A DNA stretch of 64,000 nt from Escherichia coli (GCF_001677475.2 NZ_CP015229.1); one strand, 5' to 3'; numbered from the stretch's first letter, positions 5,313-48,415 are shown. Program-made: numbers and translations. The notes: generated from the sequence alone by a model not told the origin.

Positions 5313-5400
5313 TATTTCAAGCCTTTTAAGCCCCTTCAAAAATGCCCGCATCTCCTTTTAAAGCGAATTTTAAAGAAGCTCCAAAAGCAGGTCAATTAAG

Positions 5401-10680: not shown

Positions 10681-10696
10681 TAAGGAGGGCATCATC

Positions 10697-10984: not shown

Positions 10985-11004
10985 TTAACAGGAGCTTTAT
11001 TTAT

Positions 11005-11529: not shown

Positions 11530-11627
11530 TACCACCACAAATATTTAATTAGTTCACTTTCTTTTAATTATGGCGCGATGCGTCAGGGGATTGCTCGCGC
11601 CTGAATCTGATATACGGGATATAAAAA

Positions 11628-12170
11628 ATGATTAATACAAAAGTTCTGAGCGGCGTCAGCACATTATTACAGGTTTACGGGCGTCTGACCTGCGGCGTTC
11701 TGGCTGAAAAAATGAAGATGCCACCTTCCTCAATGGTGTATTTCCTGCGTGATGCGGTTGATGCCGGAGTTCTCACTGAATGCAACGGATTTTATGACGT
11801 TCCGCGCCCTCGTCCAACGCCGCCAGTAAGACGAAACGCAACAACTGAACACCCCGATGTTGATGATGCTCAATGGTGCGCGTTCCGCCGCTCTTTGCCC
11901 TGGCTGGAAGGCAATGCCATTCCGGCACTGGCAAAAGAATTCGCGACAGGCGTACTGACCTGCGAGTCGGTTTACATCGTTGCTGAAGTGGATGACGAGA
12001 TGTGCAAACAGGGAATGCCCCGTTTTGTGATGGCTTATATCGATATCCGGCTGGGTCGTTTTATTTGTGGCTCCAGTGGCTGGAATATCACCGACCACAT
12101 CCTGCGCTATCTCATTCTTGATTATTCACCGGTTCCGGCAGAAACACAGGAAATCAGCGAGCATGGTTAA
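11628..12170 (+). CDS. Hypothetical early protein (180 aa)
   Basis: ORF track; ATG start. Confidence 0.4.
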   Translation: MINTKVLSGVSTLLQVYGRLTCGVLAEKMKMPPSSMVYFLRDAVDAGVLTECNGFYDVPRPRPTPPVRRNATTEHPDVDDAQWCAFRRSLPWLEGNAIPALAKEFATGVLTCESVYIVAEVDDEMCKQGMPRFVMAYIDIRLGRFICGSSGWNITDHILRYLILDYSPVPAETQEISEHG

Positions 12171-12345
12171 GTCAACTGGCTTTGTCCTGCTGGTTGGCAC
12201 CTGCGGGAATGATGCCTGTGATGCCATTCCGGTAACGGAAAAAATCTGGCCCACAGAGCAGACATGTATGCAGGTGCAGGAACGCTTACAAAAACGCTAT
12301 CCCGGTGAAGTTTTTTATTGCGAAGAGGTATTACGAAATGAGTAA
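12163..12345 (+). CDS. Small hypothetical protein (60 aa)
   Basis: ATG at 12163 overlapping the preceding stop; ORF-track entry 12067-12345 trimmed to this internal start. Confidence 0.3.
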   Translation: MVKSTGFVLLVGTCGNDACDAIPVTEKIWPTEQTCMQVQERLQKRYPGEVFYCEEVLRNE

Positions 12346-12700
12346 GCATATTTATGACGACCCTAAATATCGGGCTGAAATGCGGGCGCAACTGGTTGTC
12401 AGTGGATATACACCGGAGCAGGCCGATACAACTATGACAGAACTGATGGGACAGCTTCCATTTGATGAAGCTGAATATGAATACTGGCTGAAGCGGTACA
12501 AGCTGGAAATTATGGAAAATACCACACTTCCATCGCTGATCAGAATAATAAAAAGCGTTGTCGACAATGCTTGTTATAGCGGTGATTGTCTGGCCGCAGC
12601 AATTGCGACCCATGCTCTGGTGAATCTGCTGGAGGTTACCGGCGCAGTTTTCCTGAATCCTGAAAAGGTATTAAGAGATGAAAATACAGATGATTACTGA
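12338..12700 (+). CDS. Hypothetical early protein (120 aa)
   Basis: ATG at 12338 overlapping previous stop (translational coupling). Confidence 0.4.
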   Translation: MSKHIYDDPKYRAEMRAQLVVSGYTPEQADTTMTELMGQLPFDEAEYEYWLKRYKLEIMENTTLPSLIRIIKSVVDNACYSGDCLAAAIATHALVNLLEVTGAVFLNPEKVLRDENTDDY

Positions 12701-13013
12701 TGCTGATTTAATGGCTGCAACCTTAGTTTCCAGTGGCATGTCAGAACAAAAGGTAAATGATTTTCTGGATAATGTCGTATACCAACACTATGAGCAGGCC
12801 AGAGAAAATTTAATTTCGGAAAAGCTCACGATGATTGCTGAATCATTAAGCCCTGCATGGATTATCGAAGAGTTGCGGGGAATCATTGCCAGCCATGATA
12901 AAGTGGCGGCAGTTGCCGCCCTCGATGTGCTACAGCGAATGAGTAAAGAGCTATTCAACACTGAATTAATTTTTAAATCCGGGGGACATAATGAGCCGCA
13001 CATCCCTGATTAA
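12678..13013 (+). CDS. Hypothetical early protein (111 aa)
   Basis: ORF track; overlaps neighbouring genes by a few codons. Confidence 0.4.
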   Translation: MKIQMITDADLMAATLVSSGMSEQKVNDFLDNVVYQHYEQARENLISEKLTMIAESLSPAWIIEELRGIIASHDKVAAVAALDVLQRMSKELFNTELIFKSGGHNEPHIPD

Positions 13014-22765: not shown

Positions 22766-23701
22766 ATGTCACAGACTATCAGTTCTGAAATCCTTCATGC
22801 ACTGACCACCTGCCTGAGCGCCGCCTTTACCCGTGGACTGAGTGGTGTCGAACCGCAGTGGAATCGTATTGCTTCTGAGGTGCCGAGTTCGTCCGCCTCC
22901 AACACCTACGGCTGGATGAAAGATTTACCGGACATCAAAGAATGGGTCGGTGAGCGTCAGCTGGCAACGCTGGACGGTTATGGTTACACCATCACCAACA
23001 AACTCTGGGAAAGTTCCATTCGCGTTAAGCGCGAACACATTGAAGATGACCAGATAGGTCAGTACAGCATTACCGCCGAACGCTATGGCCGTATGACTGC
23101 TGTGTTCCCGGACAAGCTGTGTTACGCCCTGTTGTGTGCCGGGTTTAACACCCTGTGCTTTGACGGCCAGAACTTCTTTGATGAAGACCACCCGCTGGGC
23201 GACGGCACCTACAGCAACGTTGTCGGTACACCAGGAACGGACCAGGGCGAACCGTGGTTTCTGATTGATGAGTCGCAGGTGCTGAAACCCATCATCTGGC
23301 AGACGCGACGCGCCTTTAAATTTGAAGCCCTGGACGATCTGAACAGCGAGCACACCTTCAAGAACCACGAGTTCCTGTACGGCGTGGACGGTCGCTGTAA
23401 TGCGGGCTTCGGCTTCTGGCAGACCGCCGTCGGTTCCGTGCAGCACTGACGGTGGAGAACTACAAAAAAGCCAATGAGTTGCTGCGGGGCATGAAGGCAC
23501 CAACGGTGAGCCGCTGGGCATCCGCCCGACCACCCTTGTGGTGGGGCCGAAAAACCGTGCGGACGCGAAGCTCATTATTGACGCCATGCTGGTTAACGGC
23601 GGCGATTCAACATCTGGTACAAGGATGTGGAGATCGTGGACAGCCCGTACATCACACCGCTGGCAATAACCCGTCATCGCGTATCTGTAACCCGCAGTTA
23701 A
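22766..23701 (+). pseudogene. Major head subunit (Mu T-like) interrupted by three apparent single-base deletions
   Basis: Protein-like translation continues through three frame changes: ...AVGSVQ / (A)LTVENYKKANELLRGMK / GTNGEPLGIRPTTLVVGPKNRADAKLIIDAMLVNGGDS / NIWYKDVEIVDSPYITPLAITRHRVSVTRS*, shifting at about 23443, 23497 and 23608. Confidence 0.55.
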
Positions 23702-23751
23702 AAGGCGCTGCGAATGCCCTTTTAACTGCCTTTTAAAAGGCAGAGTCATGA

Positions 23752-33346: not shown

Positions 33347-34412
33347 AATCCCCACGCTGGGCAAACTGATTGCCGACGGCGAAAAAGATATTGCGTATGA
33401 ACTCGGCCTGCAAAAGCTGCCGCCTGTCAGTGTTGAGCAGGCACTGAACGTGTCATTCAGCAGTCAGGTCCGGGATTTATACGACCATCAGAGCTGGATT
33501 AAGGACCAGATAATTCCGTCCACCGCGTCTGATGATGAAACCATTATCAAAACAGCAACGTATGAAGGGGTTATCCGCAAGCAGGCCACCTTTGCCAGCG
33601 GGCCGGTGACCTTCACCAGTCAGTCCCCCATTCCGGCAGAAACCCGGATGCAGTACGACACGAATCAGGTGTATCAGGTACTCACATCCGGCGAGGTACA
33701 GAACGGCGAGGTCACTGTCATCGTGCAGGCTGAAGAAGCCGGTGTTGCGGGCAATCTTGCTGCCGGTGCCGTGCTGACCCTGCTGTCCCCGTTGCCCGGA
33801 ACGGGCAGCACAGGCGCGGTGACTGAAAGTGGCATCACCGGTGGCGCAGATATCGAATCCATCGCAGAGCTGCTGGACCGTCTGCTGTATATGCGCCGCA
33901 ATCCCCCGGTGGGCGGTGCACTGCATGATTACGTCATCTGGGCGCGTGAAGTGCCGGGTGTCAGCCGCGCGTGGGCATGGGATGCGTGGCACGGCCCCGG
34001 CACGGTCGGGCTGGCATGGCTTTATGATGACCGTGAAGACATTATCCCCACACGGGACGACCTGAAGACAATGGAGCAGTATCTGTTCTGCCACAAACAC
34101 CCGGCCACCGGCGTGATGGTGGGCAAACCGGGCGGCATCGAGGTCTGGCCGGTGCAGGTCAGGCTGAAGAAGCTCGACCTGTCCATCCGTCTGACACCGG
34201 ACAGCCAGGCGAACAGGAACGCCGTCCGGGCAAACCTGACCGCATTACAGAAAACGCTGGCCCCCGGTCAGATGCTGCCGGTGTCCTCGCTGCGCACGTC
34301 CATCGGTATGACGTCCGGTATCACGGATTACTTCCTCAACATCGGGGAAGACACCACCAGTGATGTGGATGAGCTTATCACTATCGGGGAGGTGACATGG
34401 CTCACAGCGTGA
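33336..34412 (+). CDS. Baseplate J-like protein (Mu gp47-like)
   Basis: ATG 33336 overlapping previous stop; about 358 aa. Confidence 0.55.
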   Translation: MPYEIPTLGKLIADGEKDIAYELGLQKLPPVSVEQALNVSFSSQVRDLYDHQSWIKDQIIPSTASDDETIIKTATYEGVIRKQATFASGPVTFTSQSPIPAETRMQYDTNQVYQVLTSGEVQNGEVTVIVQAEEAGVAGNLAAGAVLTLLSPLPGTGSTGAVTESGITGGADIESIAELLDRLLYMRRNPPVGGALHDYVIWAREVPGVSRAWAWDAWHGPGTVGLAWLYDDREDIIPTRDDLKTMEQYLFCHKHPATGVMVGKPGGIEVWPVQVRLKKLDLSIRLTPDSQANRNAVRANLTALQKTLAPGQMLPVSSLRTSIGMTSGITDYFLNIGEDTTSDVDELITIGEVTWLTA

Positions 34413-34981
34413 CGGAATGGCTGACCGCGCTGCAACAGGTCATGCCACGGGGTAAGGCATGGCCGCGCGATAACGACGCGGATTTAAACCGTTTTTTAAG
34501 GGCGCTTGCAGAGCGTTTAACCCGCGTTGAATACGACGCCTCGCGCCTGCATGTGGAGATGCGACCGGAAACCACGCTCCAGCTGCTGCCGGAGTGGGAG
34601 CAATATCTGGCACTGCCGGAATGCGGAATTGCCGCCACCACAACGGAAGCCCGCCGCCGGGCCGTGGTGGAGAAATACCGCCGCAAAGGCGGGCTGGCAA
34701 CCTGGCAGATTGAAGCCGCTGCGGCGGCGCTGGGCTTCACCATTAAGGTGACGGCCGTTCTGCCGCACCACTGCCTGCGTGACTGCATGTACCCGCTGCA
34801 TCCGGCACGGTATCGCTGGCTGCTGAAAGTGGAAGTCCCGGACAACGATGCCGGGCGGTTTACCTGTATTGATGACGTCATGACGCCATTAATCAGCGAA
34901 CGCACCCGCGAGCTGGAATGCCTGCTGAAGCATTACCGGCTGGCGGGTACGGAATATGAATATTATTACACCGGAGAATAA
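34397..34981 (+). CDS. Tail protein (Mu gp48-like)
   Basis: 194 aa, last baseplate-cluster gene before the tail fibre. Confidence 0.5.
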   Translation: MAHSVTEWLTALQQVMPRGKAWPRDNDADLNRFLRALAERLTRVEYDASRLHVEMRPETTLQLLPEWEQYLALPECGIAATTTEARRRAVVEKYRRKGGLATWQIEAAAAALGFTIKVTAVLPHHCLRDCMYPLHPARYRWLLKVEVPDNDAGRFTCIDDVMTPLISERTRELECLLKHYRLAGTEYEYYYTGE

Positions 34982-34984: not shown

Positions 34985-35764
34985 ATGTTTCACGTGGACA
35001 ATAATACGGGTGTGCCTGTTATGCCGCCTGTTGCGGCTGAATTAAGCAAAACAACGCTTTATTTCACCGAAGGCGGGAACGGTATTCCAGCCACTTATCC
35101 AGGACCAGACTGGTTTAATATTATTCAGTCTGAACTGCTGGAAATTCTCCGGCAGGCAAATATCAAACCGGATAAAAATACCACCAACCAGATTATGACG
35201 GCGCTGAAAAAACTGTTTATTACGAACAGTGGTTCAGCCGGAGCTATTGCTGGATTAACCGGTGAGAATAATACGTTCCCGTATTTTACCGGCGAAGACG
35301 AAATGGCATTAACGCCGCTCAGTGCGTTTGTGCGCGGCATTCTTGGTAAAACCACAGCCGATGAAATTATTGATGCACTTTCATTACGTGACACGGTAAA
35401 TAAAGCCAGTAGTGCCGTACCGAATACCCGCAGGGTCAACGGCATGGCCCTGACTTCAGATATCACCATCAGCAACATCAGCGGCAACGCCGGAACGGCA
35501 ACCCGACTTCAGACGGCCCGCAGGATTAACAATGTGCTGTTTGATGGTTCCGGTGATATCACAATCCCTGCCGGGATGAGTCAGTCCACAGCGGATGCGC
35601 GTTATGTTCAGAACGTTCAGTTAGGTGCGCAGGTACAGGGGGGATCTCAGGCACCCACAGGGTGTGTGGTCACCTTTGTTGATGGCGGCGAGAAGATGGA
35701 ATATATCCAGTATAAACCCCTGCAAATTTATATTAACGGCGCATGGCGCACGATATCCGGTTAA
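34985..35764 (+). CDS. Tail fibre protein (short; S-like)
   Basis: 259 aa; followed by an assembly chaperone gene. Confidence 0.55.
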   Translation: MFHVDNNTGVPVMPPVAAELSKTTLYFTEGGNGIPATYPGPDWFNIIQSELLEILRQANIKPDKNTTNQIMTALKKLFITNSGSAGAIAGLTGENNTFPYFTGEDEMALTPLSAFVRGILGKTTADEIIDALSLRDTVNKASSAVPNTRRVNGMALTSDITISNISGNAGTATRLQTARRINNVLFDGSGDITIPAGMSQSTADARYVQNVQLGAQVQGGSQAPTGCVVTFVDGGEKMEYIQYKPLQIYINGAWRTISG

Positions 35765-35778
35765 TTAAGGAGAAAATA

Positions 35779-36309
35779 ATGGAACTCAGAAACGTCACGC
35801 GTTATTACCCTGAAGATATGCCTTATGGTGAAAATATTCAGTATTTCCGTAGTGAAGACGGGCAGGATTTTTATGAATCGCTGGATAAATTCACGAAGAA
35901 ATACAAATTGTGTATTCACCCGGAAACCGGCGTGATTTATTCGATGGCAGAAGACGTGTCCCGTCTTTATCCGGCGGGGTTCACTATTGTGGAAGTGGAC
36001 GAACTGCCGGAGGGTTTTGGCATTGAAGCCTGCTGGTATTACCGGGATGGCGAAGTGCTGCCGGTTCCGGTTGATTATTCGCAACTGGCAGAAAAGCAAC
36101 GCCAGCGTCTTCTGGCTGAAGTCAGGGACATCACCTCCGACTGGCGAACCGAGCTGGAGTTGGGCACCATCAGCGACGATGACAAAGCCCGTCTTACGCA
36201 GTGGATGGCATATATCAAAGCGGTGAAGGCGCTGGATTTAAGCACCGTTACTGATGAAGCCTCCTTTAATGCCATCAACTGGCCGGAGCGTCCCGATGCC
36301 GCAGCTTAA
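35779..36309 (+). CDS. Tail fibre assembly protein (Tfa/U-like)
   Basis: ATG 35779 with AAGGAGAAAA RBS; about 176 aa; follows a fibre gene. Confidence 0.6.
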   Translation: MELRNVTRYYPEDMPYGENIQYFRSEDGQDFYESLDKFTKKYKLCIHPETGVIYSMAEDVSRLYPAGFTIVEVDELPEGFGIEACWYYRDGEVLPVPVDYSQLAEKQRQRLLAEVRDITSDWRTELELGTISDDDKARLTQWMAYIKAVKALDLSTVTDEASFNAINWPERPDAAA

Positions 36310-38545
36310 AGGTGTGATTAAAACGCCCACGGGAGAACCGCTGGGCGGCGCAACCATTACTCTGACCTCCCTGCACAACCGTGCAGGGATCCTGAAAGGT
36401 GTTTTCAGCCACGTCACCACACAGAGCGGGGAGTACGACTTCCCCGTTCTGCCGGGTGTGTACAGCGTTCGCCTGACACAAAGCACACAGCGCCTTTCAG
36501 AAATCGGTGTCATCCGCGTTTATGAAGATTCACAGGACGGTTCGCTGAATGATTTTCTGGGTGCAACCGATATTGACCTGCGCCCGGAAGCCCTGAAGAA
36601 ATTCGAGGAGCTGGCGCAACAGGCGCAGCAAAGCGCGGAAGAAGCCGGAGAGCACGCGGACGCGGCTGAACAGGCCCGCCAGGATACAGAAACCCTCGCC
36701 GGGGAAATACAGCAGGATGCAGAAGAAATTGCAGGCAATGTGCAGAAAGCTGAAGAGCTTGCCTCTGAAACCAGTCAGAATGCAGCCCGCGCAGAGCAGG
36801 CTGTCAAGGATGCCGACACGATAGTCCGGAAAGCGGTCGATAAACTTGCTGATGCTGCAACGCTGAGCGGCGAGGCAAAAGCCAGTGCCGGAGCTGCCGC
36901 ACAAAGCGAACAGAATGCGGAAAATCACGCTGATAATGCAGCACAAAGCGCACAGCAGACCGCGCAGGATGTGCAGGCAACGGTCACAGCCCGCAGTGAT
37001 GCGGAACGTTTTGCGGGTGAGGCAGAAAACAGCGCACAGTCATCAGGCACAGCGCGGGACGAATCAGTCGATGCCGCCGAACGCGCCCGCCTTTATCATA
37101 ATGCCGCATCATCAGCTGCAACCAGCGCGGAAAATGCAGCAAATGCTGCACTCGGGCATGAAAACAGCGCCGCCGAATACGCCCGACAGGCTAAAGCCAG
37201 CCAGGATGCAGGTGCAGACAATGCGCAGGAAGCGAAACAGTACAGGGATGAGGCGCAGCAGATAGTTGATGACCTGAATGCAACAAATGCCTCCACGACA
37301 GAAAAAGGTCTGGTGCAACTGTGTAGTGATACGGACAACGACAGCGAGGAACTGGCTGCCACGCCAAAGGCTGTCAAAACCGTCATGGACGAGACGAAAA
37401 CAAAAGCGTCACTGGACAGCCCGGCTTTCACCGGCACCCCAACCACCCCAACCCCACCGGATGATGCCGCCGGTCTGGAAGCAGCGAACGCAGCGTTTGT
37501 GCGCAAACTGCTTGCTGCGCTGGTTGGTTCATCGCCGGAAGTTCTGGACACCCTGAACGAGCTGGCAGCGGCGCTGGGCAATGACCCGAACTTTGCGACG
37601 ACAATCACAAACGCGCTGGCAGGCAAACAACCGCTTAATGACGTCTTAACGGCAATCAGCGCACTGACGCAACGGGCAGATAATCTTCTGTACTTCAATA
37701 CAGACGGGAATGCCTCACTGTCTCCGCTGTCAGAGAAGGCCCGCGCATTACTGGCGCATGACACGGCTGAAGCCATGCGCACGGAGCTTGAGCTGAGCGC
37801 GGCTGCGACGATGGAACCCCAGAGTGATATCCGTGACCGCACACCGGGCAGGCTGGCCCTGTCCGGGATGTATGGGTTTGGACAGGCATTCACCAGCGCC
37901 GAAGCTCTGTCATTTAACGGACAGGCTGATTTCGTTATATGGCTGCAGACAGTCACACCGGGGCGTTATGCGGTCAGTATTGCGGACTCCTCCACGCTGC
38001 TGAAGGGGACCACGAAATTTAACGGTATCATTGATGTGATGTGGTCACCGTCTGATAACGACGAATCAGACACGGCGCGTAAATTCAAAACGCTGCTGTA
38101 CTACAACCAGTATTACGAGGATGAGCACAGCATACATTGTATGCGTTATCGCTACAGTGGTAACAGCTGGAATGCAACATCAAGCCTTATTGTGTATGAC
38201 GGCAACTCCCTGGCATATCTGATGTCCTCAACCGCCGGTAATGGTCCGTTCTCATATTACCAATACCCGGCCGTCGGTGTGCCGATTATGGCGGTATATC
38301 AGGGAGAAAGTTTTGGTGAAAATGCTTCTCTGGGACTCGGTGATACTGTGCCGGGTTCCCGTCTTGGTCCTCTGGCCATGAGTGCACAGGTTAGTGATAC
38401 AGGGACATACGCATCCTCACCGCAGGTTGTGATTGGCGGTGCCGGTGAATACAACTTCCCCGGTCGTTACACGGCGCTTTCGGGCCTGGGTAACAATTAT
38501 GGTACTCAGCGTGGCTTTATCGGTCTTTTTGTACGCATTGAGTAA
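36296..38545 (+). CDS. Long tail fibre protein with Ala/Glu/Gln-rich coiled-coil repeats (side-tail-fibre-like)
   Basis: ATG 36296; about 749 aa; long low-complexity helical repeat region (residues ~110-330) and a distinct C-terminal domain. Confidence 0.6.
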   Translation: MPQLKGVIKTPTGEPLGGATITLTSLHNRAGILKGVFSHVTTQSGEYDFPVLPGVYSVRLTQSTQRLSEIGVIRVYEDSQDGSLNDFLGATDIDLRPEALKKFEELAQQAQQSAEEAGEHADAAEQARQDTETLAGEIQQDAEEIAGNVQKAEELASETSQNAARAEQAVKDADTIVRKAVDKLADAATLSGEAKASAGAAAQSEQNAENHADNAAQSAQQTAQDVQATVTARSDAERFAGEAENSAQSSGTARDESVDAAERARLYHNAASSAATSAENAANAALGHENSAAEYARQAKASQDAGADNAQEAKQYRDEAQQIVDDLNATNASTTEKGLVQLCSDTDNDSEELAATPKAVKTVMDETKTKASLDSPAFTGTPTTPTPPDDAAGLEAANAAFVRKLLAALVGSSPEVLDTLNELAAALGNDPNFATTITNALAGKQPLNDVLTAISALTQRADNLLYFNTDGNASLSPLSEKARALLAHDTAEAMRTELELSAAATMEPQSDIRDRTPGRLALSGMYGFGQAFTSAEALSFNGQADFVIWLQTVTPGRYAVSIADSSTLLKGTTKFNGIIDVMWSPSDNDESDTARKFKTLLYYNQYYEDEHSIHCMRYRYSGNSWNATSSLIVYDGNSLAYLMSSTAGNGPFSYYQYPAVGVPIMAVYQGESFGENASLGLGDTVPGSRLGPLAMSAQVSDTGTYASSPQVVIGGAGEYNFPGRYTALSGLGNNYGTQRGFIGLFVRIE

Positions 38546-38559
38546 TGAGGAAATCAGGC

Positions 38560-39135
38560 ATGAAAATCAGAGCGGTGAAAGGTATCAGAAACGCACATTA
38601 TCTTGAAAATGGTGCGGTTGACTGCGAGGTGTTATTTGAAGGTGAAACGGAGTTCGCCCTGTATACTGCCATACAGGATGATATGGCCCCGACAGGCCAG
38701 CACATCTGGCAGGAGCTGCAAAGCGGGAAATGGGGCGAAATCGCCCCGTTCACCGTCACGCCGGAACTTATTGCAGCGGCAAAGGATGCCAAAAGGCGGG
38801 AAATTGAGGCATGGCGCGACAGTCAGGAAAACGTTGAGTTTATTTTCACGTTTGATGGCCGTCGTTTTGATGGCGGAAAAACCTCGCAGTCACGCCTTGC
38901 CCCCGTGGTTGCAGCAGCGCAGGCCGGACTGCTTCCGGAGGGATTTTTCTGGACTGATGCGGATAATAACAACGTCGTACTGACCAGGGAGAAACTTATT
39001 GCGCTGAACGATGCCATGATGGTGGCCATGGTGACGGAGGGCTTTAAAATCCACGAACGCCAGCGCGAGATGAAAGAGCAACTTTCCCTGCTGTCCACAC
39101 TGAGCGATATAAGAGCGTTAACGCCCGGTTATTAA
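38560..39135 (+). CDS. Tail fibre assembly protein (second Tfa)
   Basis: ATG 38560 (alternative ATG 38545 right after the fibre stop); about 191 aa downstream of the long fibre gene. Confidence 0.5.
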   Translation: MKIRAVKGIRNAHYLENGAVDCEVLFEGETEFALYTAIQDDMAPTGQHIWQELQSGKWGEIAPFTVTPELIAAAKDAKRREIEAWRDSQENVEFIFTFDGRRFDGGKTSQSRLAPVVAAAQAGLLPEGFFWTDADNNNVVLTREKLIALNDAMMVAMVTEGFKIHERQREMKEQLSLLSTLSDIRALTPGY

Positions 39136-39158
39136 GTCATCATTTTGTATAGTTTATA

Positions 39159-39257
39159 ACGATCGATACAATCGTATCGATCGTCAGTTTGCATCATCTG
39201 TGATTAAATACCCTGGCCCTCAGGGCTGTCGTATCTGGTTAATACACAGGTGGGATC
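39159..39257 (+). promoter_or_regulatory. com-mom upstream control region with GATC-containing inverted repeat
   Basis: Inverted repeat ACGATCGATAC/GTATCGATCGT (39159-39184) carrying two GATC sites, a third GATC at 39254-39257 abutting the com ATG. Confidence 0.45.
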
Positions 39258-39443
39258 ATGGATGCTGTTCGTTGTAAAAACTGCAATAAATTGCTGTTTA
39301 AAGGAAGTTTTAAGCATATAGAAATCAAATGCCCTCGTTGTAAACGTTACATTGTCATGTCGAGTGCCCGGGAGCATCCCACGGAGCTGTATTGTGGGAA
39401 AAGAGAAGAAATCACGCATCCTTACAAAACCCTGCGTTATTGA
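39258..39443 (+). CDS. com: Com zinc-finger translational activator of mom
   Basis: 61 aa; [10 protein letters not shown]...CPRCKR four-Cys zinc finger closely resembling Mu Com; overlaps the mom 5' end. Confidence 0.8.
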
Positions 39444-40089
39444 GTATGAAGGCCGTATTGTCGGCTATGGTTCAAGGGAACTGCGCGTTGAAACCATATC
39501 CTGCTGGCTGGCCCGCACAATCATTCAGACAAAGCACTATTCCCGCCGTTTTGTGAATAACTCCTGGTTGCATCTGGGGGTATTCAGCGGACGTGATCTG
39601 GTTGGCGTTCTCCAGTGGGGATACGCCCTTAATCCCAACTCAGGGCGTCGGGTCGTGCTGGAAACGGATAACCGGGGCTATATGGAACTGAACCGCATGT
39701 GGTTACACGACGACATGCCCCGCAACTCTGAATCACGGGCTATCAGCTACGCACTGAAAACCATCAGGTTACTGTATCCATCAGTGGAGTGGGTTCAGTC
39801 CTTTGCAGACGAACGCTGCGGACGTGCAGGTGTTGTGTATCAGGCATCTAATTTTGATTTTATTGGTAGCCATGAAAGCACGTTCTACGAGCTGGACGGC
39901 GAGTGGTATCACGAGATAACGATGAACGCGATTAAGCGTGGAGGACAACGAGGCGAGTATTTGCGGGCTAATAAGGAGCGGGCGGTGGTACACAAATTTA
40001 ATCAGTATCGCTACATCAGATTCCTGAACAAGCGCGCAAAAAAGCGATTAAATACCAAGCTATTCAGGATTCAGCCATACCCGAAGTGA
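39394..40089 (+). CDS. mom: Mom DNA-modification protein (anti-restriction)
   Basis: Frame open from 39352; start placed at GTG 39394 (231 aa, start uncertain); last gene before the prophage right end as in Mu. Confidence 0.7.
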
Positions 40090-40154: not shown

Positions 40155-40204
40155 GTTTTCGCATTTATCGTGAAACGTTTTCGCGTTTTTCGTGCGCCGC
40201 TTCA
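40155..40204. repeat. Prophage right terminus (Mu attR-like transposase binding sites, ends ...GCGCCGCTTCA)
   Basis: Reverse complement reads TGAAGCGGCGCACGAAAAACGCGAAAACGTTTCACGATAAATGCGAAAAC, nearly identical to my recollection of the canonical Mu right end. Confidence 0.7.
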
Positions 40205-40207
40205 GCG

Positions 40208-40609
40208 ATGACCCCAAACGGGGAAATGTATTATCCTGATGCTGTTTATAGTTCAGATTATTCATCGCAAGCAATGCCTGGTGATCGTGAAACAGTAGCA
40301 GGTGCTTCTCACTTGTTTATTCATGAAATGATGCATGTTTGGCAATATCAGAAAGGGTATGCAGTTAAGTTGCGTGGTTTATTTTCCTGGGCGGCAAATT
40401 ATCATTACGATCTTAATTTACAGTCAATTTCTTCTTATTCCATGGAACAACAAGCATCTATAGTTGCTGATTATTGGCTATTAATTAACTATGGACTGGT
40501 GGCTGATTTGGCAAATGTTAACTATGTAGGTGATACAACTGAATCAGTGAACACTCTATCGGAAAAATACAAAAAGGTGCTTAATTTTTTTCCTGCGGGT
40601 GTCATATGA
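40208..40609 (+). CDS. HEXXH motif protein (putative zinc metallopeptidase-like toxin domain), possibly a 5'-truncated remnant
   Basis: 133-aa ORF starting 4 nt after the prophage terminus; HEMMH signature; stop overlaps the start of the next gene (ATGA). Confidence 0.45.
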   Translation: MTPNGEMYYPDAVYSSDYSSQAMPGDRETVAGASHLFIHEMMHVWQYQKGYAVKLRGLFSWAANYHYDLNLQSISSYSMEQQASIVADYWLLINYGLVADLANVNYVGDTTESVNTLSEKYKKVLNFFPAGVI

Positions 40610-40962
40610 AGAGATTCTTTTTGTTTTTCTTTTTGTCGGGATGCACTGTTGGTGATTATGTTCGCCCATTGTTACCCGGTAGTGTATATTTGCAAGACGG
40701 ACAGATTTGTTCAAAACCAGACGATGGGAATATTATTTCAAATTATGTTTTATATGAAGGTAAATATGGCAATGCAATAAAGTTGAAAAGAGTGACAGGT
40801 CAGTTCGAACCCGTATGTATTGATATAAGTGAGCTATCTTCAGATGTTATGTATATCGGGAAATATATGCTCTCTTCCGGAAGTAAAAAAGAATACTATG
40901 GTTTTAGCATAATTAGAACCGGAGAACGTATTTTAAGACTTGATGATAATCATATCAAATAA
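40606..40962 (+). CDS. Lipoprotein, candidate immunity protein
   Basis: 118 aa; signal peptide with lipobox (MKRFFLFFFLSGC); AT-rich; translationally coupled to the upstream HEXXH ORF. Confidence 0.5.
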   Translation: MKRFFLFFFLSGCTVGDYVRPLLPGSVYLQDGQICSKPDDGNIISNYVLYEGKYGNAIKLKRVTGQFEPVCIDISELSSDVMYIGKYMLSSGSKKEYYGFSIIRTGERILRLDDNHIK

Positions 40963-41183
40963 CAGATTAAATAATTTTATTAGTTTTATTAATGTACTTT
41001 AGGTGAATGTTTCCACCAGGTTAACATGACGGTGCATTCTTCAAGGCATATATGGTTGATAGTATCTTCAGTAGCATGCATAAGTATTGAGATGTTTTAT
41101 GCCAGCTACGAATATATTGCATGTTTTATTCTCTGTAAGATTTCTTATTAGCACTTATCCATTTCTAGTTAAAAGGATTAATT

Positions 41184-43178
41184 ATGAGTTTTGCAGCTAC
41201 AGATTATCCATCCGGCGCACTAACTGGATCGGGTACACATAACGTGACTTTGAGCGGCAGCGCAGTTCCTGATGGAATGTTACTGTTTGCAAGCTTAGGG
41301 GGTACAGAAACAGTAGGGGAACTATTTACTTATTCTATTAAATTAAAAACTCCTGACATCCTGAACCTGGGCTATGTTTCCCCCGCAGCCAACCTACAGC
41401 TCAAACCGATGGTGGGCAAAGATCTGTGCGTCAATATCGAATTGGATGGCGGCGGAAAACGTTACATCAGCGGGCTGGTGACGGCGGCACGCGTGGCTGG
41501 TCATCAAGGACGTTCGGTGGTGTATGAACTGCGGCTCGAACCGTGGTTAAAAATACTGACCCACACTAGTGACTACAAAGCGTTTCAAAATAAAAACGTG
41601 GTGGAGATCCTGGATGAGGTACTGGATGAGTACCCCTGGCCAGTGGAAAAACGACTGGTGGAAAATTATCCGACTCGCGCCTGGCAGGTGCAGTACGGTG
41701 AAACAGATTTCGATTTTATTCAGCGCCTGATGCAGGAGTGGGGTATCTACTGGTGGTTTGAGCACAGCGAGAACAGTCACACGTTAGTGCTGGCTGATGC
41801 CATTAATGTCCACAAGGCATGCGCAGATTCGCCGCTGGTGTGTTATTACCAGAAAGGGCTGAAACTGGACAAGGAGTTTATCCATACCATCACAGCAAAT
41901 GAAAGTCTGCGCAGCGGACAGTGGGTGCTGAATGATTTCGACTTTATGAAGCCGCGTTCACTGCTGAAGAGCACCGTGGCTAATCCGCGTGAAACCGGCC
42001 TTGCTGAATATGAGCACTACGAATGGCCGGGAGATTACTTCACAAAGAGTGAAGGTGAAATGCTGACACGCATTCGCATGGAAGAACAGCGTAGCCCCGG
42101 TAGTCGGGTACAGGGCAGCGGCAATATTCGTACCCTGATAACGGGTTTTACCTTCACCCTGGAAAACTATCCGACAGCCGAAGTGAACCGGGAATATCTG
42201 CTGGTACAGACCACGCTATTTATACAGGACAATGCGCAACACAGCGGCCAGGAGCAGCATTTCTCTTACTCAACCAGCTTTGAACTGCATCCCACCAGCG
42301 AAGTTTACCGCCCACAACGAACCCTGTGCAAACCCCACACTAAAGGCCCGCAGAGCGCAATCGTCACCGGCCCGGCAGGGCAGGAAATCTGGACAGATAA
42401 ATATGGACGGGTGAAAGTTCAGTTTGGCTGGGATCGTTACGGTAAGAATGACGAAAATAGTTCCTGCTGGGTCCGTGTCAGTTATCCGTGGGCGGGTAAA
42501 GGATTCGGTGGCATTCAGATCCCGCGCATTGGTCAGGAAGTACTGGTGGATTTCAAAAACGGTGATCCGGATTTACCGATAATTGTTGGGCGTACCTACA
42601 ACCAGGACACCATGCCACCGTGGGGACTACCGGGCGCAGCGACGCAAAGCGGATTTTACAGTCACACTATCGGCGGCGGCCCAACCAATGCCAACGCACT
42701 ACGTTTTGAGGATAAACCTGGCGGTGAAGAGGTCTGGCTACATGCCGAAAAAGATCAGCGGATTGAAGTAAATAATAATGAAAGCCACTGGGTGGGCAAT
42801 AATCGCCTTAAAGTCATTGATAAAACAGAAACAGCGATAATTGGTGAGGAACGTTCTCTTACAGTTCAGATGGATGATACCTCCCTTGCCGGACAAAACA
42901 AAACGATTCAGGCCGTACAGAATTTACGCCTTGCTGCGGGAGATTCCATAATTCTTAGTTGTGGGAACACTATCCTGCAAATGACCAGTGACGGAATATT
43001 TAATATAACCTGTAAGAATTTTAATATTACTGCAACAGAAAATGGAAAGATAAATACACAATCAGGTCAGCTTGATTTAAATATGAATAACAGGGCGGCA
43101 GATATACTTCCGCCTGGAACATCGGAAAAAACAGCCCTTCAATTGGCGATAGACGTCGCCTTCATGACTAAAAAATAA
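41184..43178 (+). CDS. vgrG: Type VI secretion system spike protein VgrG
   Basis: 664 aa with conserved VgrG gp27/gp5-like core (e.g. [38 protein letters not shown]); AT-rich promoter region upstream. Confidence 0.85.
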
Positions 43179-43228
43179 ACAAAAACCATCATTAAATAAT
43201 TTATTAATTTAAAAGGACTCATATCATT

Positions 43229-43681
43229 ATGACGGAGTATTATCTCAATGAAACTGTTGTAAGTTTTTCCGGGAATATTATTCAGGACAGTACTATTAAT
43301 ATGCTTCGCCTCAGCGATCCCGACGCTGCACTCATTATCAGCCGGGGCCAGATGCAGGAAGGAGACGAATTAGCCTCCCAGATTGAACAGCAAATGAAAA
43401 AACTGGAGAAACAGGTAAAGGATCTTCACTACACGCCCGTTCAGGTAACACGGGTGGGGATTAATGACGGTGAAGAAGGACTGGAAATACAGAGCCAGTT
43501 TCTCCGGGGTAACGAGCAGGTGTACCAGTGTCAGGTGGCATTTGTATTGCCGGGTGAGCGGGTCATGATGGCCTTCACCTACGCCCGAACCACACCGCTG
43601 ACCCCGGCAGATATGACGCGCTGGGCTGAAATTAAAAAGAATCTGCGCTTCAGGATGCGGCAGGAAGCCGGGACGAATTAA
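43229..43681 (+). CDS. DUF1795 (EagR-like) effector chaperone
   Basis: 150 aa between vgrG and a prePAAR-Rhs gene; typical position and size. Confidence 0.6.
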   Translation: MTEYYLNETVVSFSGNIIQDSTINMLRLSDPDAALIISRGQMQEGDELASQIEQQMKKLEKQVKDLHYTPVQVTRVGINDGEEGLEIQSQFLRGNEQVYQCQVAFVLPGERVMMAFTYARTTPLTPADMTRWAEIKKNLRFRMRQEAGTN

Positions 43682-43699
43682 TCACACAGGGAACGGGAC

Positions 43700-46600
43700 A
43701 TGGAAGAGGCATTCTGGGCGGCAAGGCAGGGTGATGCCCTGCTGCATACGTCGTTTATGGCAGATGTGCTGGGGGCAGTTGTAGAGGTTGCCGCCACAGC
43801 CCTGGTGGATGTTCTGGTTGTCGGAACCATGGCGGCGCTGGGCGGAGTTGAAGTGGCAACGCTGGGCTGCTCAACCATTTTAGCGATCGGTATAGCAACA
43901 GCGGTATTTATGTCGTATCAGGGCTGGAATGACCGAATCAGTAGGGAAAGTGAGCAACTGGCGAACTGGCTTTTCCCGCCTCAGATTGAAGGTTACATCC
44001 TCACCGGCTCTGGCGACACATGGATCAACAGCAAACCTGCCGCGCGGGCCGCGGCGACTGCGGCATCGCGGCAGGACATTGAGGCGCAGGAGGCGCAGGC
44101 GAAGGCGGAACAGGAAGAAGCGCAGCGTCAGGAGGATGCCAGAACGTTCCTGGATGTGGCCGGGGAATATCTGGAAATGGCGGGGGCCATAGCCCTGGCG
44201 GTTAACCCGGTGACAGGGCCTGTGCTGATGTCCCGGGCGCTGCACGACCAGCTCAGTACGGAAGAAGGGCGTTCTGAAATGGTGGATGGCGTGACACATT
44301 TTGTGTCGGAACTATGGCAGCCCACCGTGGCCAGTGCGGCCCCGGGCTCCACCCCGACCCCTGACGATAAAATCGACTGCCATAAACATCCCTCCTCACT
44401 GACGCAGTTTCTCGCACAAAAAAAAGCCGCCTTTCTGGATGACCCCCTGGGAACGGCCCTTAACCTGCTGAGTCCGGGCGGTATGCTGGAAACCGCCTTT
44501 CAGGGAGTGAATGCGGTTATTGGCAGCATCAGTAATCTGTTCAAAGGCGATGATGAACCGCCCGCAGCGGAATATATCGCGGAAGGCGCGCGGGATGTGC
44601 GTATCAACAGCCAGCCGGCGGCACGCAGCGGGGCACGCTGCACCTGCGAGGCCAGGGTGGTGAATGAGCCGGGGAACGGGGCGTTTGTGTCACCGGATGT
44701 CCGCATTGGCGGTCCGTTACTGGTGGTCAGGGATATCAGAAGCGGCAGGTCGCAGATAACCCTGGTGGCAACCGTGGCGCTGATGTTTCTTCGCCCGGGC
44801 AAAATGCTTTCTAAAATCGCCTGTTTTGCTGCCAGTGTCGGGATGGGGGTGATGACGCAGAAGGCCATCAGTGCCCTTCCGCATCCGGTCAATGCCGCCA
44901 CCGGAGCCAAATATCTGGCCGATGACGATGATTTTGACTTCAGTCTGCCGGGCCACTTTCCGCTGGACTGGCAGCGCGTGTACAGCAGTCGTGACGACCG
45001 CACGGAAGGGATGTTCGGGCAGGGCTGGAGTGTAATGTATGAAGTCAGCCTCGAGCGCACGCCGGGTACTGCTGACGAAAACTGTATGACCTTTGTGTCG
45101 GGCATGGGACGACGTCTGGATATGGAGGCCGTGCTGCCGGGGAGCGGGTTTTACAGCCCCGGCGAAGGACTGGCAGTACGGCGGGGTGAGCAGGGGCACT
45201 GGCTTATCAGCAGCGATGACGGGCAGTTTTTTCTGTTTGAGGCCGACCCGCGTCACCCGCAGCGCCAGCGGCTGAAAATGCTGGGCGACCGCAACAGCAA
45301 CTGTCTGAATCTGTACTACGACGAGCTGGGGCGCATCACGCAAATCAGCGGTGAACAGCAGCGTCCGTGCATCCGTCTGCATTATGAACTGGCGGCGCAT
45401 CCCCGGCGGGTGACACAGATTTATCAGCATTTCCCTGAGATGGCTCCTTTACTGCTGCGTCGTTACCGCTATGACGAGGCCGGCGACCTGAACGGCGTGT
45501 ACGACAGCACGGGGCACCTGCTGCGCGAGTTTGCTTACGACGAAAACCACTGCATGACCCTGCACCGCCAGCCGGGCGGCGAAGGGTATTATTACCAGTG
45601 GGGCTGGTATGAAGGCCCGGATGACGCAGCGTGGCGGGTGACGGGGCACCACACGGACAGCGGTGAACAGTACCGGCTGGCGTGGAGCCTGGCGGCACGC
45701 AGGCTGTGCGTGACGGACGGGCTGGGGCGCACGCGTTATCATCAGTGGGACGCGCAAAATCAGGTGACGGCGTACCAGGACGAAGCCGGGCAGGTGACGA
45801 CGTTCCGCTGGAGCGACGAAGAACGGCTGTTACTGGGAATGACCGATGCGCAGGGCGGCAAATGGCGCTATGTGTATGACCGGCAGGGGCATATCACGGA
45901 GACGCACGACCCGCTGGGGCGGGTGGCACAGACACAGTGGCACCCGGTGTGGCACCAGCCGGAAACGGAGGTGGACGCGGCGGGGAACAGCTGGTGCTGT
46001 GAGTACGATGAACGCGGCAATCTTCTTGCGGTGACCGACCCGCTGCAGCAGAACACCCGGTATCAGTATGACCGCCACGGCCAGGTGGTGCAGATAACGG
46101 ATGCGCGCGGGGGGAATAAATACCTTCAGTGGAACGAAGACGGGCAGCTCATGCGGCACACGGACTGTTCCGGCTCGCAGACGGCCTGGTTCTACGACGA
46201 ACGCACGCGGCTGATACGGATGACAGACGCGCAGAGCCACAGCACGCGCTACGGGTATGACGACAGCGGCCACCTGACGGAGGTGATACTGGCGGACGGC
46301 CGCACGGTGAATTACCAGTCGGACGCGGCGGGCAGGCTGGTGAAGTACACCAGCCCGATGGGGAGGATAACGCGCTGGCAGCGGGACGGGCAGGGCCGGG
46401 TGCGCAGCCGGACAGACGCGACGGGGCGCAGGACGGCGTTCGGGTACGATGCCTACGGGCGTCTGGTCACGCTCACGAACGAGAACGGAGAAAGCTACCG
46501 GTTCCGCCATGACGTGCTGGACCGTCTGGCGGAGCAGATAAATCCGGACGGCTGCCGCCAGACGTACCGCTACAACGCGCTGAACGCGGTCACGGAAGTG

Positions 46601-48415
46601 GTGTTCACCGGGGACCGGGGCGGTGAAATCCGCCACCGGCTGGCACGTGATGCGGCGGGCCGGCTCACGGCAAAGGAGACAGCCGATGGCCATACGGAAT
46701 ACGTCCATGATGCGGCAGACCAGCTACTGGAAATCCGCCGCCGACGGTCGGATGCCGGGGAAACAGACGCACCGGAGATTATCCGTTTCAGTTACGACAG
46801 ACTGGGGCGGATGCTGACCGAGGAGACGGCGCAGGGCGTCCTGACCCATCAGTACGATGAACTCAGCAACCGGACAGCCACCACCTTTCCGGATGGCAGA
46901 ACGCAGCGTCATCTGTACTACGGCAGCGGCCATCTCCAGCAGATAAATCTGGACCGGGAGGTCATCAGCGAGTTCACACGTGACGCCCTGCACCGGGAAG
47001 TGCTCAGAAGTCAGGGGCGACTGAGCACGCGGCAGCTTTATGACCCCGCCGGGCGGCTGAAGCGCAGGGAGACATACAGCGGGATGCGCGGGGTGGTACC
47101 GGAGACGTTCACGGACCGGCAGTACAGCTACAGCGGCGAGGATGAATTGCTGAAGACGCGGCACAGCCGGCGGGGGGAAACGGATTACGTCTACGACCCC
47201 ACGGGGCGCATCACGGCGTGCCGCTCGGAGGATGAGGGGTATCTGGCGAGCTGGCAGTACGACGCGGCGGGAAACCTGCTGGGGAGGCGCGCGGGGGAAA
47301 GGGCCACGGCAGAAAACAGCGTGGTGCCGTTCAACCGGCTGATGTCTTACCGTGGTGTGCACTACCGTTATGACGAATTTGGCCGGACGGTGGAAAAGGA
47401 GGGCCGGAGCGGCACGCAGAGTTACCGTTATGATGCGGAACACCGGATGGTGGAAGTGACGACAGCGCGGGGGACATACCGGTATGTGTACGATGCGCTG
47501 GGGAGGCGGACGGAAAAACAGCACATCAGCCCTGACGGTAAAGCGTACAACCGGACGACATTTTTATGGGACGGAATGCGGCTGGCGCAGGAGAGCAGGC
47601 CGGAGGGAATAAGCAGCCTGTATATCTACAGCGACCCGGGGAGTTATGAACCGCTGGCGCGGGTGGATAAGGCGGGCAAAGAGGGCCCGAACCGGATACT
47701 GTATTTTCACACGGATGTGAACGGTGCGCCGGAAGAGATGACGGACAGTGACGGGAAAATCGTGTGGGAGACGGGGTATCAGGTCTGGGGTAACACGATA
47801 CAGGAGAAGGACCACGGCGGGGTGGAGCAGAACCTGCGCTACCAGGGACAGTACCTCGACAGGGAAACGGGGCTGCACTACAATCTGCACAGGTACTATG
47901 ATCCGGATGTCGGGCGGTTCATGGTAACGGACCCGATAGGGCTGGCGGGGGGGCTGAATCTTTATACTTATGCGCCTAATCCAGTAAGCTGGATAGATCC
48001 CCTTGGTTTAAGTTGTTACTTTAATTCTAAGTCTAATCGCTGGCATGACAGGCAGACAGGTCGTTTTACAAAACGACCAACAGATCCTTCAGAATTAGTT
48101 CATAATGGCCGAATTGACAAGGCTGATATAGATGTTTGGGCTAGTCAAGGAGGGATTCCAAATACATGGGGGCATGATCCGTTAAAATTCCCCAGTGGTG
48201 GTTTTAAATATGATGCTGGTAATTATACTGTTCATGGTCATGGTGCTAATCCATCTGCGGCAGCTAAATTTCCTAATTCTAATGCGGCAAATGGGCCGAC
48301 AGCGAGCATGAAAAATACTTCAACAGGTGAAGTGTTTAGAACCGATGGAACTTGGGGGACATTCAAATCAGATGCCAATGGTGCTCATATCCCCCTTGAT
48401 GGCTCACCTTATTGA
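43700..48415 (+). CDS. rhs: Rhs-family polymorphic toxin (T6SS effector) with prePAAR motif, TM segment, YD repeats and variable C-terminal toxin domain
   Basis: 1571 aa; N-terminal AARQGDALLH (prePAAR) plus hydrophobic helices; many YD-type repeats; conserved DPIGLAGGLNLYTYAPNPVSWIDPLGL boundary followed by about 135 aa of unrelated AT-rich sequence. Confidence 0.85.
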   Translation: MEEAFWAARQGDALLHTSFMADVLGAVVEVAATALVDVLVVGTMAALGGVEVATLGCSTILAIGIATAVFMSYQGWNDRISRESEQLANWLFPPQIEGYILTGSGDTWINSKPAARAAATAASRQDIEAQEAQAKAEQEEAQRQEDARTFLDVAGEYLEMAGAIALAVNPVTGPVLMSRALHDQLSTEEGRSEMVDGVTHFVSELWQPTVASAAPGSTPTPDDKIDCHKHPSSLTQFLAQKKAAFLDDPLGTALNLLSPGGMLETAFQGVNAVIGSISNLFKGDDEPPAAEYIAEGARDVRINSQPAARSGARCTCEARVVNEPGNGAFVSPDVRIGGPLLVVRDIRSGRSQITLVATVALMFLRPGKMLSKIACFAASVGMGVMTQKAISALPHPVNAATGAKYLADDDDFDFSLPGHFPLDWQRVYSSRDDRTEGMFGQGWSVMYEVSLERTPGTADENCMTFVSGMGRRLDMEAVLPGSGFYSPGEGLAVRRGEQGHWLISSDDGQFFLFEADPRHPQRQRLKMLGDRNSNCLNLYYDELGRITQISGEQQRPCIRLHYELAAHPRRVTQIYQHFPEMAPLLLRRYRYDEAGDLNGVYDSTGHLLREFAYDENHCMTLHRQPGGEGYYYQWGWYEGPDDAAWRVTGHHTDSGEQYRLAWSLAARRLCVTDGLGRTRYHQWDAQNQVTAYQDEAGQVTTFRWSDEERLLLGMTDAQGGKWRYVYDRQGHITETHDPLGRVAQTQWHPVWHQPETEVDAAGNSWCCEYDERGNLLAVTDPLQQNTRYQYDRHGQVVQITDARGGNKYLQWNEDGQLMRHTDCSGSQTAWFYDERTRLIRMTDAQSHSTRYGYDDSGHLTEVILADGRTVNYQSDAAGRLVKYTSPMGRITRWQRDGQGRVRSRTDATGRRTAFGYDAYGRLVTLTNENGESYRFRHDVLDRLAEQINPDGCRQTYRYNALNAVTEVVFTGDRGGEIRHRLARDAAGRLTAKETADGHTEYVHDAADQLLEIRRRRSDAGETDAPEIIRFSYDRLGRMLTEETAQGVLTHQYDELSNRTATTFPDGRTQRHLYYGSGHLQQINLDREVISEFTRDALHREVLRSQGRLSTRQLYDPAGRLKRRETYSGMRGVVPETFTDRQYSYSGEDELLKTRHSRRGETDYVYDPTGRITACRSEDEGYLASWQYDAAGNLLGRRAGERATAENSVVPFNRLMSYRGVHYRYDEFGRTVEKEGRSGTQSYRYDAEHRMVEVTTARGTYRYVYDALGRRTEKQHISPDGKAYNRTTFLWDGMRLAQESRPEGISSLYIYSDPGSYEPLARVDKAGKEGPNRILYFHTDVNGAPEEMTDSDGKIVWETGYQVWGNTIQEKDHGGVEQNLRYQGQYLDRETGLHYNLHRYYDPDVGRFMVTDPIGLAGGLNLYTYAPNPVSWIDPLGLSCYFNSKSNRWHDRQTGRFTKRPTDPSELVHNGRIDKADIDVWASQGGIPNTWGHDPLKFPSGGFKYDAGNYTVHGHGANPSAAAKFPNSNAANGPTASMKNTSTGEVFRTDGTWGTFKSDANGAHIPLDGSPY

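Follow-up and report, generated by a model that had tools for sequence, protein, structure and literature searches.

A gin-less tail-fibre module of a Mu-like Escherichia coli prophage that joins a Mu S/U pair to a lambda Stf-type fibre with a DUF4376 chaperone

Introduction

Phage Mu varies its host range through an invertible G segment (Sc-Sv-U / U'-Sv') and the recombinase Gin, and the same design is found in D108, SfMu and P1, the last of which carries it as the C segment with Cin. The Mu fibres S and S' have one common N-terminal part, which docks on a loop of the baseplate protein gp48 of each wedge (PMC11915804); cryo-electron microscopy identified gp48 loop 133-155 as the docking site and showed six fibres per particle (PMC11915804). 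Because both fibres use this common N-terminus, a Mu particle has one fibre kind or the other. Here we describe the tail-fibre module of a Mu-like prophage of Escherichia coli (GCF_001677475.2 NZ_CP015229.1), located at 34985-39135 of a stretch of 64,000 nucleotides that was analysed as a whole (hereafter, the window), in which two fibre-chaperone pairs follow one another in the same orientation and no invertase gene was detected.

Three other fibre arrangements are relevant to this module. In Ur-lambda, the side tail fibre (Stf) is held by a collar of the PF08400 type, present as twelve copies (four trimers) at the gpV/gpM junction (PMC12617516). In the contractile-tailed Vibrio phage XM1, the collar spike gp40, whose N-terminal domain precedes a trimeric coiled coil, is present as eighteen copies, that is, six trimers bound to the neck rings formed by the head-completion protein and the tail terminator (PMC10457771). 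In Shigella phage Sf14 (Mooglevirus), a 'simple' Mu-like baseplate bears two sets of fibres (PMC11821841).

Results

Two Fibre-Chaperone Pairs of Different Families

Four open reading frames (ORFs) on the + strand make up the module (Table 1), which bears out the two co-oriented fibre-chaperone pairs that a first-pass annotation had proposed. They are separated by a 14-nt gap, a 14-nt overlap and a further 14-nt gap, with a Shine-Dalgarno sequence at each start, and the + strand of the module contains only weak terminator-like matches (5-pair stems within coding sequence); the four genes thus have an operon-like packing.

In the first pair, the short fibre is related to Mu S (PDB 5yvq) at both ends: residues 1-81 align with its N-terminus (E 4e-24) and the last ~55 residues with its tip. 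About 235 residues of the middle of Mu S are missing, leaving 259 residues versus 504 in Mu. The Mu hinge motif IQNLGLQETVN, which the gix site encodes in Mu, can be recognised here as IDALSLRDTVN. The short fibre is a genuine, minimal Mu S homologue with a docking N-terminus, a hinge and a small receptor-binding tip. The ORF of the first chaperone opens at 35743, with the best start at 35779, where AAGGAG lies 7 nt upstream of the ATG; the product is 24-32% identical to Mu U and U' over its full length. The combination of an S-like N-terminus, an S-like tip and a downstream Caudo_TAP gene, as in the Mu S/U system, was found in this first pair only.

The second pair is of another kind. The maximal ORF of the long fibre spans 36254-38545 and encodes 763 residues; the start at 36296, which has a Shine-Dalgarno sequence and is used by the Prokaryotic Genome Annotation Pipeline (PGAP) in relatives, gives the length of about 749 residues proposed earlier. 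A domain analysis agreed with the coiled-coil character assigned at that time, with a coiled coil rich in A/E/Q at about residues 100-330, and resolved the C-terminal part into a Phage_fiber_2 repeat (nt 37292-37411, E 6e-16) followed, towards the C-terminus, by a beta-rich, globular tip. The N-terminal domain resembles both the collar domain of lambda Stf (PDB 9e7m/9mgh, E 9e-10) and the neck spike of XM1 (PDB 7kjk, E 1e-10). This fibre therefore has the PF08400 domain, the coiled-coil shaft, the Phage_fiber_2 repeat and the chaperone gene of its own downstream that characterize an Stf cassette, but it does not lie behind gpJ and lom of a non-contractile lambdoid tail: its context is a Mu-type sheath, gp47 and gp48. 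Homologues of the long-fibre tip in NCBI are often named 'shikimate transporter, partial' (P0008, P0018-P0026 and others), apparently an erroneous label for fragments of prophage tail fibres that has been passed on between records.

The second chaperone gene, whose ORF opens at 38545 and whose ATG is preceded by GAGGAA, had been annotated as a second Tfa. Its product gave no match to Pfam PF02413 (Caudo_TAP/Tfa), and DUF4376 was its sole match, so that the assignment is retained as to function and replaced as to family. A chaperone function of DUF4376 proteins for fibres has experimental support in Alteromonas phages and Campylobacter CJIE1 prophages (PMC10579305, PMC7882524). In addition, phrog_11571 fuses a Tfa-like N-terminal part with a DUF4376-like C-terminal part, which links the DUF4376 and Caudo_TAP families functionally.

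The com-mom region follows directly, as first annotated: com begins 122 bp past the DUF4376 gene, and these 122 bp constitute the mom control region, in the slot that the 3' end of gin occupies in Mu. The cluster of Dam sites in this region (ACGATCGA...ATCGATCG) is invariant in this lineage and in Mu despite the different upstream gene (DUF4376 versus gin); in Mu it overlaps the 3' end of gin, whereas here it comes straight after the DUF4376 stop codon. The com gene occupies 39258-39443, mom starts at 39352 or 39364 and ends at 40089, and the Mom protein is 95% identical to that of Mu.

Absence of an Inversion System

We found no sign of the machinery that inverts the Mu G segment. No Gin homologue was detected in the whole window by tblastn with Mu Gin (best E 0.88), and every ORF between 33.3 and 40.1 kb was assigned to another function. 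The longest inverted repeat between 33 and 41.5 kb measures 31 nt at 71% identity, lies at unrelated positions and was judged to be at chance level, and no site in the window matched the 34-bp Mu gix repeat at <=12 mismatches. The alignment upstream of com revealed no remnant of gin, only the Dam-site regulatory cluster. All four genes are on the + strand, unlike the oppositely oriented cassettes of a G segment, which have one constant N-terminus and are accompanied by a serine invertase gene and inverted crossover repeats of about 34 bp.

The same tblastn search served as its own positive control, because it detected a Gin homologue (61-80% identity) just 3' of the fibre genes in nine sister loci, from prophages with a baseplate J 58-72% identical to that of the window. 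Chaperone genes are in the opposite orientation in some of these gin-bearing loci, and in the two that were looked at further, inverted repeats of 49 nt (L104) and 84 nt (L103) flank the variable part. The first-pass annotation had reported neither a recombinase gene nor flanking inverted repeats here and had proposed a comparison with relatives that bear a G segment; that comparison shows Gin and repeats of 49-84 nt in the relatives and neither in the window, and the cryptic invertase or inverted-repeat crossover sites that would have overturned the annotation did not turn up. SfMu was considered as a gin-less relative and rejected, since it has both the G segment and gin (PMC4406740).

A Cassette Shared with Lambdoid Prophages

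The origin of the second pair is indicated by a lambdoid prophage of E. coli 08-00022, in which the gene order is gpJ, lom, a PF08400 fibre and a DUF4376 gene. Positions 36937-39083 of the window (2147 bp, ungapped) are 97.95% identical to stf-DUF4376 of this prophage, and the homology stops sharply at both ends. The two fibres are near-identical from about residue 215 on, whereas their first ~100 residues are only ~30% identical; the DUF4376 chaperone is 93% identical to the 08-00022 protein, except for its last ~15 residues. The last ~15 codons of the DUF4376 gene form a lineage-conserved block outside the exchanged cassette.

Both junctions of the cassette sit in short boxes that are common to the lambdoid and Mu-like versions, on the left GCACAGCAGAC.GC.CAGGATGTG and on the right CGCCAGCGYGARATGAARGARCARCT, which encodes RQREMKEQL. 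The same breakpoints also divide conserved from variable DNA when the window prophage is compared with eight Mu-like relatives, and the variable blocks in this comparison coincide with the tips of both fibres. In the short fibre, the N-terminal part is constant across relatives (to nt 35380 or 35566), and a smaller variable patch at the tip extends from 35380 or 35566 to about 35720. Judged from these alignments, the second pair is a complete lambdoid Stf cassette with an N-terminal anchor of its own, not a counterpart of S'/U', and its distal part came recently, through homologous recombination, from a lambdoid (siphovirus) prophage.

Recurrence and Variation of the Module

The layout was present in 8 of the 8 complete E. 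coli genomes inspected, in the order gp47, gp48, short fibre (259-331 residues), Tfa (176 residues), PF08400 fibre, usually DUF4376, com and mom. The prophages are inserted at different sites (flhA, an opp gene, fic/yhfG, chiP, ynfD and next to irp1), as expected of an actively transposing phage. In IMG/VR, 23 of the 25 loci with this subtype of the N-terminal domain show a collinear Mu-like context, the two exceptions being a remnant riddled with insertion sequences (IS) and a 1.8-kb fragment; no Gin was found in these 25 related loci. One locus (L036) that had been taken for a non-Mu context of the N-terminal domain was rejected as such: it proved to be a remnant disrupted by IS elements, and not lambdoid. 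Among 5426 complete E. coli genomes, about 45 contain the gin-less region of this lineage upstream of com, and 44 contain the gin-com junction of Mu. The arrangement is thus not peculiar to the window but marks a widespread E. coli prophage lineage.

The second fibre varies considerably within this lineage, with lengths from 301 to 1037 residues. STEC719 has a split second fibre with an SGNH/GDSL esterase gene behind it; at this locus (L010 2327-5053), a 301-residue PF08400 protein is accompanied by separate small ORFs and a 456-residue SGNH/GDSL esterase, so that the same anchor may bear an enzymatic (deacetylase-like) spike. In SA53-3, the second fibre gene has an IS3 element at its 3' end, at the place expected for the chaperone gene. 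In 23CRST050, the second fibre is cut to its first ~110 residues, and coverage and feature lists indicate that the same apparently holds for many similar genomes.

More distant relatives show what else the slot can contain. A locus whose gp47 is 72% identical to that of the window (L087) keeps the short fibre, Tfa, the PF08400 fibre and com. Three loci with gp47 58-61% identical (L100, L101 and L105, at ~10650-12720) encode two tandem, co-oriented S-type N-termini that are separated by a chaperone gene, and have no Gin. On the basis of these sister loci, three kinds of content occur in the slot after S-U: an inverted S'/U' pair accompanied by gin, a fibre of the lambda type, or a further S-type fibre.

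No isolated phage with this tail module was found in the phage collection that we searched, in which the best match to baseplate J was 55%, in Klebsiella phage Kp4866-3. This phage was rejected as a close isolate, its third tail protein being unrelated to the PF08400 domain. Among the papers searched, we also found none joining the terms 'Mu-like prophage', 'Escherichia coli' and 'side tail fiber'.

The Prophage and Its Flanks

The prophage extends from ~5.15 kb to 40204 of the window and has the features of a Mu-like transposable phage: MuA (Mu-transpos_C) and MuB (Phage-MuB_C), Mu-type late and tail genes that include gp36, the gpT head protein, the sheath and homologues of baseplate J (gp47) and gp48, and com-mom with a Mu-type right end. 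Over com, mom and the right end, nucleotide identity to Mu and SfMu is 88%. Homology to uninterrupted chromosomal sequence starts at 40203/40205, and the right flank at 40300-44300 shares 99.3% identity with many chromosomes of E. coli.

The flanks of the prophage (1-5152 and 40205-48007) belong to different replicon types. Leftwards, the flank matches IncY P1-like phage-plasmids of ~95-100 kb at 97-99% identity; of 541 matching places, 526 are on plasmids, and the match stops within a plasmid gene. The right flank is a chromosomal type VI secretion system (T6SS) vgrG/Rhs island, which begins 125 nt into a 176-residue chromosomal gene; yncE and ansP, the chromosomal DNA expected to the left of the prophage, are absent from the window, and the left end lacks a copy of the 5 bp that adjoin the right end (GCGAT). 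Such unlike flanks could have arisen from Mu-mediated fusion of replicons (a cointegrate) or from an assembly that was joined across two copies of the prophage. The gene broken by the prophage (40208-40609) is small and has an HExxH-like motif (FIHEMMH), and just downstream of it lies a cluster of vgrG, a DcrB-like gene and an Rhs toxin gene (41184-48000). The Rhs core at 44-48 kb has a high GC content of 61-64%, with a sharp fall to ~38-43% from 48 kb.

Two further irregularities were observed in this copy. The left end and the repressor-side region (~5153-5420) are unlike those of the otherwise similar ETEC1732 prophage, which has a canonical Mu-like left end (TGTATTGATTCACGAGAAGTACGAAAAAAACCGGGAGG); the left end in the window bears only a loose resemblance to a Mu-like end, contains TTCAAGATA three times, and is placed at 5153 or 5155. 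The major head gene (Mu gpT family, 22766-23736) is split: a 227-residue ORF covers 218 of 289 Pfam positions and the remainder lies in another frame, whereas the head gene of relatives is a single ORF of 301 residues (L040 2269-3174). The split reflects a frameshift or a sequencing error, and capsids may not be made by this copy.

Table 1. Coordinates of the tail-fibre module and neighbouring features in the window
Feature	Position	Strand	Evidence or remark
Mu gp48-type baseplate wedge protein (YmfQ family)	34397..34981	+	Pfam Phage_Mu_Gp48, E 6e-32; 30% identical to Mu gp48
Short Mu S-type tail fibre, 259 aa	34985..35764	+	Match to PDB 5yvq (Mu S); phrog_1833 tail fibre, E 1e-80
First tail fibre assembly chaperone, Mu U / lambda Tfa family, 176 aa	35779..36309	+	Pfam Caudo_TAP, E 2e-21
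Long lambda Stf-type fibre, 749 aa	36296..38545	+	PF08400 at N-terminus, E 1e-26
Parts of the long fibre: Ig (immunoglobulin)-like anchor, aa 1-~100; coiled-coil shaft, ~100-330; Phage_fiber_2 repeat; distal shaft; tip, aa ~520-749			
Recently exchanged cassette: distal shaft, receptor-binding tip and most of chaperone gene	36937..39083	.	97.95% match to lambdoid stf-DUF4376
DUF4376 chaperone of the Stf-type fibre, 191 aa	38560..39135	+	Pfam DUF4376, E 2e-19
mom regulatory region with paired CGATCG Dam sites (GATC 39161, 39179)	39136..39257	+	Alignment with Mu and two relatives
com and mom	39258..40089	+	Pfam Zn_ribbon_Com and Mom, E 1e-75
Prophage right end (...TTTTCGTGCGCCGCTTCA)	40187..40204	+	Mu homology to within 4 nt of Mu's last base

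Discussion

Two Anchors and Cassette Exchange

The module encodes two complete fibre systems, and we consider it probable that these are made together and mounted on different sites of the virion, and that host range is altered by cassette exchange instead of inversion. The first system consists of a minimal Mu S-type fibre and a U-type chaperone, with the gene of the gp48 homologue directly upstream; the second is a lambda-type side tail fibre with a DUF4376 chaperone and an unrelated Ig-like 'collar' anchor of the PF08400 type. Since the anchors differ, the two fibres would not be rivals for one site, and we infer that both may be displayed on the same particle, after expression from the late tail transcript. 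Such a particle would possess two receptor specificities simultaneously, where Mu alternates between two; Sf14, with its two fibre sets, is a precedent (PMC11821841). The lineage-specific anchor would stay in place, and the outer two thirds of the fibre together with the chaperone would be swapped at the short conserved boxes with co-resident lambdoid prophages, a plentiful kind in E. coli, cassette recombination being a substitute for site-specific inversion.

The position of the second fibre is the most speculative step. Our preferred guess is the neck, where it would form a 'collar fibre', because known homologues of the anchor encircle rings of tube-fold proteins, and in a sheathed tail, where the sheath covers the tube elsewhere, such a ring is exposed mainly at the neck. 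More tentatively still, and with somewhat less than even confidence, we propose that a Mu-type phage mounts a lambda-type side fibre via an adapted PF08400 collar, possibly at the neck, and so has two receptor-binding systems simultaneously, and that myovirus and siphovirus prophages within one E. coli cell share one pool of tips and chaperones. If so, this shared pool would be a recombination-based alternative to G-segment inversion that crosses tail morphotypes.

Several observations weigh against this interpretation. The neck proteins (the gp37-like protein and following ones) gave no PDB sequence match and none to the proteins that bind the XM1 collar spike; gp37 is too nearly invariant (96-99% identity across relatives of every N-terminal-domain subtype) for co-variation with the anchor to show. 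An appreciable fraction of relatives (e.g., 23CRST050 and the IMG/VR loci L027, L029 and L030) have only a truncated second fibre or lack it, and hence this fibre is dispensable at least for persistence of the prophage. The prophage copy in the window may itself be defective, its major head gene being frameshifted relative to that of relatives.

Alternative Explanations

Both fibres might also be displayed with the Stf-type fibre docked not at the neck but at the periphery of the baseplate or on the short fibre, in a branched structure with the short fibre partly serving as an adaptor. The two fibre genes are adjacent and translationally coupled via the intervening chaperone gene, the S-type fibre is unusually short compared with the 504 residues of Mu S, and Sf14 offers a precedent for two fibre sets on a Mu-like baseplate (PMC11821841), all of which would suit such an arrangement. 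However, both PF08400 homologues of solved structure bind rings of the tube fold and not fibres or wedge proteins (PMC12617516, PMC10457771), and divergence of the N-terminal domain in relatives (69-99% identity) does not follow that of gp47, gp48 or the N-terminus of the short fibre. We therefore regard this arrangement as unlikely, though worth keeping in mind.

It is more doubtful still that the Stf-DUF4376 genes are a lambdoid passenger, which is not incorporated into the virion, serves at most as a recombination reservoir or is decaying, and leaves the short fibre to work alone. The reduction of the second fibre to its first ~110-130 residues or its deletion in many relatives, the IS3 element at the 3' end of the gene in SA53-3, and the dispensability of lambda side fibres in the laboratory (PMC12617516) are compatible with a passenger. 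Against a passenger, the anchor is lineage-specific, sharing ~30% identity with that of the lambdoid donor and 69-99% among Mu-like relatives, and its subtype occurs only in Mu-like contexts, apart from the IS-riddled remnant and the 1.8-kb fragment. Moreover, the anchor stays intact while the distal parts are repeatedly replaced, the distant relative with a 72% identical gp47 has the same layout, and the genes are translationally coupled to tail genes.

A module that is still switched, whether by a recombinase acting in trans (e.g., Cin of the adjoining P1-like plasmid DNA or a cryptic prophage's Pin) or through some different form of phase variation, seems to us highly improbable. P1-family elements encode Cin, and the invertases Gin, Cin, Pin and Hin act on each other's sites; the window does contain P1-like phage-plasmid DNA at 1-5152. 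But the window has neither a gix-like site (<=12/34 mismatches) nor an above-chance inverted repeat around the fibre genes, both fibre genes are complete and co-oriented and thus leave no shared constant part to be re-joined, and a single orientation was seen in 8/8 inspected genomes and in 23 IMG/VR loci. A frozen G segment, in which ancestral S'/U' were fixed in the forward orientation after loss of gin, would explain why the second pair fills the U'-S'-gin slot of Mu between U and the mom promoter, but it is already contradicted by domain content, because the second fibre has a complete PF08400 anchor where S' lacks an N-terminus of its own, its chaperone is DUF4376 and not U'-like, the fibre gene precedes the chaperone gene, neither gix nor gin has left a trace, and the distal part is 98% identical to lambdoid stf.

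Significance

Mu is the textbook case of host-range switching by DNA inversion, and the gin-less lineage is about as frequent in complete E. coli genomes as the classical gin-com arrangement. On the preferred reading, in which two co-displayed fibres have different anchors, this lineage would meet the same problem with two complete fibre systems. The locus is also a clean case of a receptor-binding cassette that passes between lambdoid siphovirus and Mu-type myovirus prophages, with the virion anchor alone remaining lineage-specific. For phage engineering, it shows which part of a fibre to keep and which to swap, and for the prediction of prophage host range, it indicates that the information lies in the tip and not in the phage type. 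Should the PF08400 anchor prove to sit at a Mu-type neck, the 'collar spike' design of XM1 would extend to temperate enterobacterial phages.

Comparison with Known Systems

As in Mu, the module lies between gp47-gp48 on one side and the mom promoter, com and mom on the other, contains a true S homologue with a U-family chaperone, and encodes two specificities. Unlike Mu, it has no gin, gix or inverted cassette; its second fibre is a separate gene with another anchor and another chaperone family, and simultaneous rather than alternating display is to be expected.

The second pair resembles Stf of Ur-lambda and the lambdoid stf-DUF4376 genes in its PF08400 collar domain, coiled-coil shaft, Phage_fiber_2 repeat, globular tip and downstream chaperone. 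In contrast to lambdoid stf, it is part of the baseplate operon of a contractile, Mu-type tail and does not follow gpJ-lom, and the surface of the tube and gpM that the lambda collar grips would here be covered by the sheath. The collar spike gp40 of the Vibrio myophage XM1 (PDB 7kjk) shares with the long fibre a contractile-tail setting and a homologous Ig-like N-terminal domain, but it has a tailspike-like C-terminus and its gene lies outside the baseplate cluster; docking of the XM1 type would be conjectural here, no sequence similarity having been detected between the neck proteins of the two phages. Sf14 likewise has adjacent, co-oriented fibre genes of unequal length (391 and 792 residues), but its fibres have neither chaperones nor a PF08400 anchor, and the phage is virulent and of unrelated genome organisation.

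The host-recognition module described here is real and recurrent and, as far as could be found, previously undescribed. Its parts are known ones in a new combination: the S/U pair of Mu, an Stf/DUF4376 cassette of the lambda type, and the com-mom end of Mu.

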